Sequence record: MT682709.1
Direction: 5' to 3' (one strand)
DNA: 64,000 nt
DNA from: Escherichia phage vB_EcoM_SP1
Part shown: positions 3,790 through 35,241 of the stretch, piece by piece
How the letters are laid out: every line of letters begins with the position of its first letter
Position numbering within the stretch: position 1 is the stretch's first letter
Translations under genes and position numbers: made by a program
Notes under the pieces: generated by a model
The model's database searches: none
Seen by the model: the letters and a program-made list of their open reading frames with translations, nothing else
Told to the model about the DNA's origin: nothing

Positions 3790-4033
3790 TATTCATCATC
3801 CTCGTCTTCGTCATCTTCGTCAGAGTCTTTGTCTTTTTTGTCGTCTTTATCATCACTATCTTCGTCTTCATCATCCTCGTCTTCAGGTTCTTCACCTTCG
3901 ATTAAGAAATTACGAGCGATAGCGATTTTTTCTTCTTTAATTAAATCAATCGTTCTTGCAGCCATGGCTTCAGCAAATAATTTACGAGCGGCTACGAGGT
4001 CGTTTGATTTAATAGCTTCAATTAAACCTTCCA

Positions 4034-4034
<1 letters not shown>
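3789..4034 (-). CDS. 67: prohead core protein gp67 with acidic C-terminal tract
   Basis: 81 aa; C-terminal E/D-rich tract; T4 gp67 position. Confidence 0.75.
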
Positions 4035-5686
<1,652 letters not shown>

Positions 5687-33237: not shown

Positions 33238-33525
33238 ATGATTCTTTATGCGAAAGTATCGTCCGTTGAAAATGGATATAAATATGATCAAGATGCGGCT
33301 AAAGCCTTGATTGATGATTATGGCATTTTAACATGTTTTGAAGTTGAAAAGGTTTACATTGACCGTTCATCTTCTCAAGTTAAATTAGTAAAGGAAGACC
33401 GTAAATTTAATACAGTAAATTTTGATTTCTTTATCGAAACAGAAAAAGGTCCTCTTGAATATGATATTTTCAAGAATCCTTTGGGTCTTGAATGCATCGT
33501 AAACATGTATTATCATAAATGGTAA
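33238..33525 (+). CDS. hypothetical protein
   Basis: 95 aa ORF, coupled start (TAATG) with the upstream ORF. Confidence 0.55.
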   Translation: MILYAKVSSVENGYKYDQDAAKALIDDYGILTCFEVEKVYIDRSSSQVKLVKEDRKFNTVNFDFFIETEKGPLEYDIFKNPLGLECIVNMYYHKW

Positions 33526-33622: not shown

Positions 33623-33695
33623 TGGGAATTAGCCAAGTTGGTAAGGCACTGGATTTTGATTCCAGGATGCAAAGGTTCGAGTCCTTTATTCCCAG
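33623..33695 (+). tRNA. tRNA-Gln (anticodon TTG)
   Basis: Cloverleaf read by hand: acceptor TGGGAAT/ATTCCCA, anticodon loop TTTTGAT. Confidence 0.85.
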
Positions 33696-33696
33696 C

Positions 33697-33783
33697 GCGA
33701 GAATGGTCAAATTGGTAAAGGCACAGCACTTAAAATGCTGCGGAATGATTTCCTTGTGGGTTCGAGTCCCACTTCTCGCACCA
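33697..33783 (+). tRNA. tRNA-Leu (anticodon TAA), CCA encoded
   Basis: Acceptor GCGAGAA/TTCTCGC, anticodon loop CTTAAAA, long variable arm. Confidence 0.85.
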
Positions 33784-33788
33784 AATTT

Positions 33789-33862
<74 letters not shown>

Positions 33863-33872
33863 ATTTAATTTA

Positions 33873-33946
33873 CTCCGTGTAGCTCAGTTTGGTAGAGCGC
33901 CTGATTTGGGATCAGGAGGTCCAAGGTTCAAATCCTTGTATGGAGA
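33873..33946 (+). tRNA. tRNA-Pro (anticodon TGG)
   Basis: Anticodon loop TTTGGGA, T-arm GGTTCAAATCC. Confidence 0.85.
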
Positions 33947-33948
33947 CT

Positions 33949-34038
33949 GGAGGCGTGGCAGAGTGGTTTAATGCACCGGTCTTGAAAACCGGCAGTCGCT
34001 CCGGCGACTCATAGGTTCAAATCCTATCGCCTCCGCCA
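33949..34038 (+). tRNA. tRNA-Ser (anticodon TGA)
   Basis: Acceptor GGAGGCG/CGCCTCC, anticodon loop CTTGAAA, long variable arm. Confidence 0.85.
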
Positions 34039-34043
34039 GTTTT

Positions 34044-34119
34044 GTTGATTTAGCTCAGTAGGTAGAGCACCTCACTTGTAATGAGGACGTCGGCGGTTCG
34101 ATTCCGTCAATCAGCACCA
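34044..34119 (+). tRNA. tRNA-Thr (anticodon TGT)
   Basis: Acceptor GTTGATT/AATCAGC, anticodon loop CTTGTAA. Confidence 0.85.
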
Positions 34120-34120
34120 A

Positions 34121-34195
34121 GGCCCTGTAGCTGGAAGGTTCAAGCAAGCGACTCATAATCGCCAGATGGTGGTTCAATTCCACCCAGGGCCACCA
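34121..34195 (+). tRNA. tRNA-Ile (anticodon CAT, T4-type) or Met
   Basis: Acceptor GGCCCTG/CAGGGCC, anticodon loop CTCATAA. Confidence 0.75.
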
Positions 34196-34204
34196 AATTA
34201 ATTT

Positions 34205-34291
34205 GGGGAGTTATCCCGTAGAGGTAGCGGTGTGGACTGTAAATCCATTGTCATTGCGACTCGGGTGGTTCGACTCCATCACTCCCCACCA
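34205..34291 (+). tRNA. tRNA-Tyr (anticodon GTA), type II
   Basis: Acceptor GGGGAGT/ACTCCCC, anticodon loop CTGTAAA, long variable arm. Confidence 0.7.
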
Positions 34292-34295
34292 ATTT

Positions 34296-34370
34296 GGATG
34301 TGTAGCTCAATGGCAGAGCGATCGCCTGTTAAGCGATTGGTTATAGGTTCGAATCCTATCACGTCCGCCA
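34296..34370 (+). tRNA. tRNA-Asn (anticodon GTT)
   Basis: Acceptor GGATGTG/CACGTCC, anticodon loop CTGTTAA. Confidence 0.75.
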
Positions 34371-34374
34371 AATC

Positions 34375-34450
34375 CGAGGCATAGCTCAGAAGGAAGAGCA
34401 AGGACCTTCTAAGTCCTAGGTCGTAGGTTCGATCCCTACTGCCTCGACCA
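34375..34450 (+). tRNA. tRNA-Arg (anticodon TCT)
   Basis: Acceptor CGAGGCA/TGCCTCG, anticodon loop CTTCTAA. Confidence 0.75.
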
Positions 34451-34466
34451 ATTAAGTGAGGAAAAT

Positions 34467-34817
34467 ATGAAAGGTAATGTTTATTTAGTAGTTCATGATT
34501 TAACATTCTATTTTAATCATAATGACACTGTTATTTCTGAACGTGTAATTAATTTACTTTATCAGCATGCAGATTATGTTTATGTCGAAAACGAATACGG
34601 TCATTGGCAATTTCTCAAAAATCGTTCATTTGGTTTAGATGGTTACGAATACTTTGAACGTAAAGACCTTTTAGATAAAATTCCATTATCTACACAATAT
34701 CAAAATCACAAGTCTTTATATAAATGCCGTCCAATTCGAAATGCTGAATCTGCGTATGAAGTAATTGATTTATGGCGTAAACGTCGTGGACAGGTTGATG
34801 CTTTAAAAGAATACTAA
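34467..34817 (+). CDS. hypothetical protein
   Basis: 116 aa ORF with GAGGA RBS just after tRNA-Arg. Confidence 0.55.
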   Translation: MKGNVYLVVHDLTFYFNHNDTVISERVINLLYQHADYVYVENEYGHWQFLKNRSFGLDGYEYFERKDLLDKIPLSTQYQNHKSLYKCRPIRNAESAYEVIDLWRKRRGQVDALKEY

Positions 34818-35151
34818 GAAACCGGGTCGCTACCGGTAAGTCGTCGGACTGATGTTCCCTGGAGTATAGTTTCTCCCACAGTTTTACTGTGTTCTGATTC
34901 TTTACTATCACAGCAGAAACGGCGCACCAAATTATCGATTCGAGGAAATATCTTTGCCGTAAGCCGAGTAGCGTTTTTGACGGAACGTTCGGATATGGTC
35001 GAGATATGGCCTTTTAAAAATATTGAGTAGCGTCAACTACTTAATAACCGGGTTCAAATCCCGGCGTTTCGTACAAACACTTGCCTTAGCAGGTGGAACC
35101 CCGACAAGGTTGCCGCAAGGCTTAGCCCCAGCCGAAAGGTTGGGGCTTTTT
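34818..35151 (+). ncRNA. putative structured stable RNA with strong intrinsic terminator
   Basis: No ORF in about 330 nt; tRNA-like T-arm CCGGGTTCAAATCCCGG at 35048-35064; 9-bp hairpin with GAAA loop and T5 at 35125-35151. Confidence 0.4.
35125..35151 (+). terminator. intrinsic terminator
   Basis: GCCCCAGCC-gaaa-GGTTGGGGC followed by TTTTT. Confidence 0.8.
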
Positions 35152-35241
35152 AGTTTGAATCACTCGGATAACGCTGTTACGGATAATAACAAAGTAATAA
35201 ATAATTAATAACCAACTGATAGATTATTTCAAGGATTTTAA

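Follow-up and report, generated by a model that had tools for sequence, protein, structure and literature searches.

Homologs of the T4 rnaD and rnaC genes at the end of the tRNA operon of Escherichia phage vB_EcoM_SP1 and their comparative folds

Results and discussion

Organization of the locus and identity with the T4 genes

The end of the transfer RNA (tRNA) cluster of Escherichia phage vB_EcoM_SP1 (MT682709.1), a T4-like phage of the genus Tequatrovirus, was analyzed in a stretch of 64,000 nucleotides (nt), hereafter the window; positions refer to the window unless another record is named. An earlier note, made from the sequence alone, had proposed one or two stable small RNAs co-transcribed with the tRNAs between 34818 and 35151. 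Two such RNAs were recognized: the region contains the orthologs of T4 rnaD (species 2 RNA) and rnaC (species 1 RNA), which in T4 share one transcript with the tRNAs, and it can be read with high confidence as the rnaD and rnaC genes followed by a conserved trailer and an intrinsic terminator that closes the phage tRNA operon. The pair is an already known element, known since the 1970s. The following parts were distinguished, with boundaries obtained by carrying the T4 annotation over through alignment:

~34814-34928, + strand: rnaD homolog (T4 species 2 RNA); alignment to T4, covariance model and covariation-backed consensus fold
34929-34934, + strand: spacer AAAUUA between rnaD and rnaC; T4 annotation via alignment
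34935-35073, + strand: rnaC homolog (T4 species 1 RNA), 139 nt; match to T4, covariance model R1 and fold
35074-35123, + strand: 3' trailer, kept even in phages without rnaC
35124-35152, + strand: intrinsic terminator of the tRNA/rnaD/rnaC unit; terminator scan, fold and conservation in homologs

In the T4 record NC_000866, rnaD (119 nt, 71053-71171) directly follows tRNA-Arg and rnaC (139 nt, 70908-71046) is annotated as a small stable RNA beyond rnaD. Pairwise alignment over the full length of rnaC gave 137 of 139 bases identical to T4. For rnaD, a 5' module of ~47 nt and a 3' module of ~22 nt were the same as in T4 save for a few bases, and the ~45 nt in the middle belonged to a sequence type other than that of T4; the 3' end in the window reads ...GGCGCACC. 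Trailer and terminator were nearly the same as those of T4, and in both phages the tRNA cluster ends with rnaD, the spacer, rnaC, the trailer and the terminator, in this order. Altogether, the flagged stretch was matched in 759 to 817 records of T-even-type phages with 80-99% identity. The covariance models scored 165 bits for rnaC (R1, 34935-35077, one copy in the window) and 120 bits for rnaD (R2, 34815-34934); the window sequence is a training sequence of either model, and the scores are not independent. The 5' end of rnaD at 34814 was set by analogy to T4 and is uncertain; the sequence upstream of it is an open reading frame (ORF) and not tRNA-Arg.

The expression of the T4 genes is documented. 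The tRNAs, rnaD and rnaC are located on one primary transcript of ~1.75 kb that ends after species I RNA (PMC2330249). T4 RNAC was seen by northern blot, and rnaC and rnaD were classed as late (PMC9697503). Their roles were given as unknown in 2010, 2022 and 2025 (PMC3014915, PMC9697503, PMC12685909), and our literature search, the scope of which did not extend to the original papers of the 1970s and 1980s, yielded no paper assigning a function to rnaC or rnaD.

The strong terminator noticed earlier was confirmed by a terminator scan. The inverted repeat AGCCCCAGCC-GAAA-GGTTGGGGCT at 35124-35147 forms a stem of 10 base pairs (bp), seven of them G-C, with a GAAA loop and is followed by TTTTT to 35151. 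This is an intrinsic (Rho-independent) terminator, a G+C-rich hairpin with the U tract next to it, and it is kept in homologs. In the trailer, three small hairpins are predicted, CACUUGC/GCAGGUG, AACC/GGUU and GCC-GCAA-GGC.

Upstream of the two RNAs, ARAGORN and Rfam identified 10 tRNA genes at 33623-34450 (Gln, Leu, Gly, Pro, Ser, Thr, Met, Tyr, Asn, Arg). This layout, lacking segB, is similar to that of T2, RB1 and RB3 and unlike that of T4 with its 8 tRNA genes and segB. Whereas rnaD abuts tRNA-Arg in T4, an ORF of 116 amino acids (aa) at 34467-34817 (+ strand), affiliated to PHROG 3355, separates them in the window; in a Karamvirus, PHROG 3355 is likewise annotated next to the tRNA cluster (L002 2337-2711). 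Boxes resembling the T4 late promoter are present ~340 nt upstream of the first tRNA (TATAAATA, 33277-33284, + strand) and, within the ORF, ~90 nt upstream of rnaD (TATAAATG, 34719-34726, + strand), a motif that is over-represented in the window with 31 matches versus 17 expected.

Structure of rnaC

For rnaC, 21 distinct sequences from six genera (Tequatrovirus, Gaprivervirus, Karamvirus, Kanagawavirus, Marfavirus and Winklervirus) were aligned. RNAalifold on the 21 sequences and the minimum free energy (MFE) fold of the window sequence alone gave the same structure. The rnaC RNA is predicted to be a tRNA-shaped four-way junction, which is new in this comparison, and is composed of the following elements:

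34936-34942, + strand: 5' strand CGAUUCG of the acceptor-like stem; pairs with 35065-35071, with two central U.U mismatches
34943-35012, + strand: large arm at the position of the D-arm, a multi-helix domain of ~68 nt; RNAalifold, MFE fold and covariation
34977-34982, + strand: P3 hairpin loop UUGACG, putative kissing partner of 35031-35036
35021-35046, + strand: arm P4 at the position of the anticodon arm, with a 10-bp stem and the 6-nt loop CGUCAA (35031-35036)
35048-35064, + strand: T-arm CCGGG-UUCAAAU-CCCGG, preceded by one linker base
35065-35071, + strand: 3' strand CGUUUCG of the acceptor-like stem, directly 3' of the T-arm; fold and covariation

Standard base pairs occupied 98.3% of the sequence-by-pair cells, compared to 88.4% in shuffled alignments, of which 0/500 reached the observed value, and 37-51% after sliding of the partners. 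Compensatory changes, with both sides exchanged, were present in 22 of the 42 pairs. In the acceptor-like stem (7 bp) the five standard pairs were kept at 100%, and at pair 3, 12 of the 21 sequences had switched from A-U to G-C. In the predicted fold this stem is stacked on the T-arm. The latter is the perfect T-arm CCGGGTTCAAATCCCGG that had already been noticed at 35048-35064 and can be read directly in the sequence; its middle pair was changed from G-C to U-A in 12/21 sequences. The stem is followed by UA, the annotated mature end of T4 rnaC (...CGUA), and then by CAAA; the 3' tail is UACA in the window and in T4, and UCCA in Marfavirus homologs. The large arm consists of the helices AGG/CCU, AUAUCUU/GAGAUAU, GCCGUA/UAUGGU and CCGA/UCGG and the hairpin P3. 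Compensatory changes were found in its inner helices; the AGG/CCU pairs never varied. For the P4 stem, 7 of 9 counted pairs were compensatory, and in a Karamvirus-like contig (L122) the stem was fully exchanged and the loop kept.

The P3 loop UUGACG and the P4 loop CGUCAA are exact complements over 6 nt. All six loop-loop pairs were kept at 100% in 21/21 sequences, and the stems around both loops vary freely. In Marfavirus (3/3 aligned sequences) the loops read UUGGCG and CGCCAA, a matched exchange of A-U for G-C. Comparison of the sequences supports a 6-bp intramolecular kiss of the P3 and P4 loops in rnaC.

Structure of rnaD

The covariance model built from the rnaD alignment found rnaD also in Karamvirus, Jiaodavirus and Marfavirus. 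The predicted architecture is a 5' hairpin (HP1) followed by a long irregular rod with an exchangeable tip. The full architecture was common to RNAalifold and to separate MFE folds of the sequences of the window, T4 and phage W70, and the MFE folds of the Karamvirus and Jiaodavirus RNAs shared the 5' hairpin, a closing helix and the variable arm with a shifted pairing register. The elements in the window are:

34821-34837, + strand: hairpin HP1 ACCGG-GUCGCUA-CCGGU; 5/5 pairs compensatory across phages
34840-34846, + strand: 5' strand GUCGUCG of the closing helix; pairs with 34920-34927; RNAalifold and MFE folds of five types
34862-34905, + strand: variable arm; sequence differs by phage type, hairpin fold in each
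34920-34927, + strand: 3' strand of the closing helix CGGCGCAC, CGGCG(C)AC with a bulged C; RNAalifold and covariation

In the model-fitted alignment, pairing occupied 96.3% of the cells, versus 85.3% in shuffled and 29-50% in slid alignments, and 14 of 23 pairs showed compensatory changes. HP1 varied at all five pairs, with UCAGA/UCUGA in Karamvirus and Jiaodavirus and UCGGG/CCCGA in W70. The closing helix was paired to 98% and mostly invariant, with one exchange of G-C to A-U, in Jiaodavirus; its core was the same throughout. In the middle helix of the rod, U/A in CUGA(U/A)G covaries with A/U in CAGC(A/U)G; a helix CUGAUG/AUCACAG guessed by eye was rejected, the covarying partner being CAGC(A/U)G instead. 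The variable arm occurs in at least five unrelated sequence types and every type folds as a hairpin. In the window, its apical hairpin is CACAG-UUUUA-CUGUG at 34877-34891, in which G34889 pairs with C34879.

Comparative folding across the phages thus provided a covariation-supported structure for each of the two RNAs. Compared to shuffled sequences, the predicted folding was more stable for rnaC (34935-35073, z = -4.43, 0/200 as good) and for the trailer (35074-35151, z = -3.69, 0/200 as good); rnaD alone (34818-34928) did not fold better than its shuffles (z = -1.34, 18/200 as good). The centroid fold of the whole region contained separate local domains only. A long-range helix between gaaaccggg and cccggcgtttc had been considered in the earlier note. 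The complementarity exists, between 34818-34826 and 35060-35070, the latter one base off the 35061-35071 given before; the helix itself was rejected, for both arms belong to other, covarying helices. ACCGG (34821-34825) is a strand of HP1 with its five compensatory pairs; in rnaC, CCCGG forms the 3' side of the T-arm and CGTTTCG that of the acceptor-like stem. In addition, each RNA occurs without the other in other phages.

An adaptive mutation in rnaD

For phage BW-1, a convergent adaptive single-nucleotide polymorphism (SNP) common to all three ECOR34-evolved lines has been described, with a change of virulence from 0.17 to 0.98 (PMC12685909). The SNP at record position 164264 (T to C, + strand) is an A to G exchange in the RNA and corresponds (L279 315) to position 34889 of the window. 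It converts CACAG-UUUUA-CUAUG into the hairpin ending with CUGUG and restores a C-G pair at the tip of the variable arm of rnaD. The regained pair is already present in the window (G34889/C34879) and in other relatives. The predicted energy of the BW-1 rnaD was -25.9 kcal/mol in a different fold before, and -31.0 kcal/mol in the canonical rod after the exchange. The report on BW-1 described no major change of the fold and gave rnaC as lying upstream of rnaD, opposite to the order in which the two are transcribed (PMC12685909). The predicted folds suggest that a correctly folded rnaD may matter on some natural hosts and not on K-12.

Distribution of the two RNAs

rnaC and rnaD are independent modules. 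In Karamvirus, rnaC is flanked by tRNA-Trp and tRNA-Gly and stands alone; there, and in Jiaodavirus and Marfavirus, rnaD follows tRNA-Asn at a distance of hundreds of bases from rnaC. In W70 and A73, phages of the Vequintavirinae, rnaD is alone and comes directly after tRNA-Met (W70: L005 1493-1598), and several Mosigvirus-like contigs have a clean deletion of rnaC that spares rnaD and the trailer. In W70, the conserved modules of rnaD are identical and the central arm resembles the Karamvirus/Jiaodavirus type (GAGUUCYCUCAACGAUAAC). The presence of this RNA in a subfamily unrelated to T4 suggests that its gene was exchanged horizontally between families of phages.

No rnaD or rnaC homolog was detected by blastn in 5,426 complete E. 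coli genomes, and a scan of 185,579 bacterial and archaeal GTDB genomes with an rnaD signature gave only 4 unrelated hits that look like chance. A pattern scan of metagenomes for rnaC yielded, among the matches listed, mostly ordinary tRNAs beside a chance TTCGAGGA, together with at least a few T4-type and Marfavirus-type copies. Two scans of viral contigs with short rnaD motifs gave mostly chance hits. Both RNAs appear to be confined to phages, always next to tRNA genes.

Several loci deviated from the usual arrangement. In Escherichia phage AV109 (Mosigvirus; L278 551-622), the feature annotated as tRNA-Asn, which ARAGORN does not recognize as a tRNA, is chimeric: two-thirds of a tRNA-Asn, from its 5' end, are joined to the 3' end of rnaC at the shared T-loop GGTTCGAATCC, and tRNA-Arg, rnaD and most of rnaC are deleted. 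This looks like a recombination between T-loops. In a viral contig of 170 kb (L026 ~4020-4100, - strand), rnaD is followed by an unrelated G+C-rich sequence, ...GGAGTTTTTCCAGAGCGGGCGGTGCGCCCGG..., and not by rnaC. In Karamvirus and Jiaodavirus, a stretch of ~130 nt without annotated gene lies between the rnaD-like element and tRNA-Asp (L275 585-719; L276, L002); it opens with the hairpin CCGAAAG-UUUA-CUUUCGG. Klebsiella phage KLB31 (Kanagawavirus; L004 1575-1890) has ~300 nt without annotated gene after rnaC, including a T-arm-like GTAGGTTCGAGCCCTAT, for which ARAGORN gives no tRNA.

Processing and possible function

Judged from its fold, the acceptor/T-arm minihelix would make rnaC a substrate of the host tRNA-processing enzymes. 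A cut by ribonuclease (RNase) P at the 5' side of rnaC would at the same time free rnaD at its 3' end. Exonucleases would trim back until they stop at the closing helices, and the flanks would be left to RNase III and RNase E. The T4 ends lie one or two bases beyond the closing helices, which fits an exonuclease stop there. The compact folds may confer stability on rnaD and rnaC.

With low confidence, we suggest for the two RNAs a role in trans and not in decoding, either as mimics or decoys that resemble tRNA or as fitness factors specific to certain hosts. The sole functional hint is the BW-1 SNP, which repairs the tip pair of rnaD on ECOR34. A more specific version can be put forward tentatively, as one possibility that is itself rather doubtful: rnaC and rnaD would be a trans-acting, structure-dependent host-range pair, with rnaC as a non-chargeable tRNA mimic and rnaD needed in its folded form on some natural hosts. 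The kiss-held rnaC may occupy or divert a host tRNA-binding factor, e.g., a tRNA-targeting defense nuclease or a processing enzyme; rnaD, a module present also in the unrelated Vequintavirinae, may serve on natural E. coli such as ECOR34.

A number of observations weigh against this interpretation or limit parts of it. Stable discrete species are reported for T4, and would be present in vB_EcoM_SP1 by analogy. The covariation of rnaD was counted on an alignment fitted to the model, a procedure that favors the very structure modeled, and covariation says little about the closing helix of rnaD, which hardly varies. The kiss has one compensatory column in one clade, and its other five putative pairs are invariant. 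The RNase P cut at the 5' end of rnaC and the exonuclease trimming are steps derived from the predicted fold. The annotated T4 rnaC has one base ahead of its first acceptor pair and UA, not CCA, at its 3' end; for this reason rnaC is not an ordinary product of RNase P and the CCA-adding enzyme. The BW-1 SNP could act other than via the fold of rnaD. Finally, both RNAs are missing from some related phages, and in the old T4 literature deletions of the whole tRNA region are reportedly viable on laboratory hosts; any function would therefore be conditional.

The main rival to a function in trans is a role solely in cis: the region would be a processing scaffold and a 3' exonuclease barrier for the upstream tRNAs, with the excised RNAs as by-products. 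The region is the last part of the operon ahead of the terminator, which agrees with such a role, as does the retention of trailer and terminator where rnaC is deleted, and RNase III is reported to be involved in T4 tRNA maturation (cited in PMC4810235). However, the rnaC and rnaD genes of Karamvirus, Jiaodavirus and Marfavirus are situated in the middle of the cluster and apart from each other, not at the end of an operon. The loops and unpaired blocks UUGACG, CGUCAA, UAAGUCGUCGG and CCCUG are strongly conserved, and a mere barrier needs none of them. Moreover, the SNP in the tip hairpin of rnaD has a host-specific effect on fitness. We consider an exclusive cis role unlikely.

Decaying tRNA pseudogene material without a function of its own, a relic of tRNA turnover, would account for the canonical T-arm, for the weak alignment of the Rfam tRNA model to 35000-35072 (13.9 bits) and for the loss of rnaC, or of both RNAs, in some lineages. 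In phage G4507, the 3' part of rnaC is even annotated as a 94-nt tRNA-Lys(ttt) (L277 473-566). The acceptor of such a short tRNA in the 3' half of rnaC (CGAGAUA/CGUUUCG), which is that of the weak Rfam alignment and is implied by the G4507 annotation, was rejected: its pairing was 71.4% compared to 71.1% after shuffling, and compensatory changes did not occur in it. The compensatory changes in 22/42 pairs of rnaC and 14/23 pairs of rnaD extend across 6 or more genera, and pseudogenes do not keep pairing in this way. Furthermore, the T4 RNAs accumulate as stable species. The pseudogene explanation is thus very improbable.

That the stretch encodes small proteins is scarcely credible. Many homologous records, including T4-like ones, carry 2-5 'hypothetical protein' features under the match, and mechanical ORFs of 34-73 aa are present in the window. 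However, as the earlier note had stated, 34818-35151 contains no credible ORF: the overlapping frames (61 aa with a TTG start on the + strand; 73, 38 and 34 aa on the - strand) are short and unconserved, several have TTG or GTG as start codon, and one of them continues across the terminator. The corresponding T4 sequence is annotated as RNA, the substitutions follow the compensation of paired stems, and the center of rnaD is exchanged for unrelated sequence in which only the hairpin potential is kept. The least probable explanation, practically negligible, is one tmRNA-like (transfer-messenger RNA) or large tRNA-like RNA of ~260 nt closed by the long-range helix: the two ends are complementary and the 5' end of rnaC, CGAUUCGAGG, loosely recalls the D-loop-analog sequence of tmRNA, but both arms are engaged in covarying helices, rnaC and rnaD occur separately, the centroid fold consists of local domains, and neither ARAGORN nor Rfam found a tmRNA.

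As a finding, the locus is ordinary, since the known genes of species 1 and species 2 RNA of the T-even phages were rediscovered from raw sequence. Added here are a comparative fold for each RNA, the independence of the modules and a structural reading of the BW-1 mutation. The tRNA-Lys annotation in G4507 and the 'hypothetical protein' features over rnaD, rnaC and trailer are probably mis-annotations, and these labels should be corrected in the many deposited T4-like genomes that carry them. With the folds at hand, the question of rnaC and rnaD function, open for ~50 years, becomes more testable, with specific mutants on a specific host (ECOR34).

Comparison with known RNA systems

The scan with Rfam, at the gathering threshold and then at E <= 10, assigned no family to the stretch, the tRNA model (RF00005) reaching 13.9 bits at best, and ARAGORN called no tRNA or tmRNA in 34451-35241. 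The degenerate tRNA considered in the earlier note was right in its shape and wrong in its identity. Like tRNA, rnaC has a 5-bp T-stem with the 7-nt T-loop UUCAAAU, followed by a 7-bp acceptor 3' strand, and T-arm and acceptor-like stem each contain one compensatory pair; the cloverleaf topology is tRNA-like as well. Unlike tRNA, rnaC scores below the threshold of the family (13.9 versus 29 bits, E = 7.9) and is not called by ARAGORN. A domain of ~68 nt takes the place of the D-arm, a 10-bp stem with a 6-nt loop that of the anticodon arm, only a single linker base precedes the T-arm, and the acceptor contains two U.U mismatches.

An acceptor/T-arm minihelix within an RNA that is not a tRNA is known from tmRNA, the bacterial Y RNA YrlA and mascRNA-type processing signals, where it is expected to recruit tRNA-processing or tRNA-binding proteins. 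rnaC follows the same concept, with neither a sequence nor a covariance-model match to any Rfam family. It differs from tmRNA by the absence of a tag reading frame and of the G3.U70 pair, the pair 3-70 being A-U or G-C. The putative kiss has its counterparts in TAR-TAR* and in RNA I/RNA II of ColE1, which likewise pair fully complementary hexaloops with changes matched on both sides. In contrast to these complexes, the two loops of rnaC are located in one molecule, and their kiss is deduced by sequence comparison.

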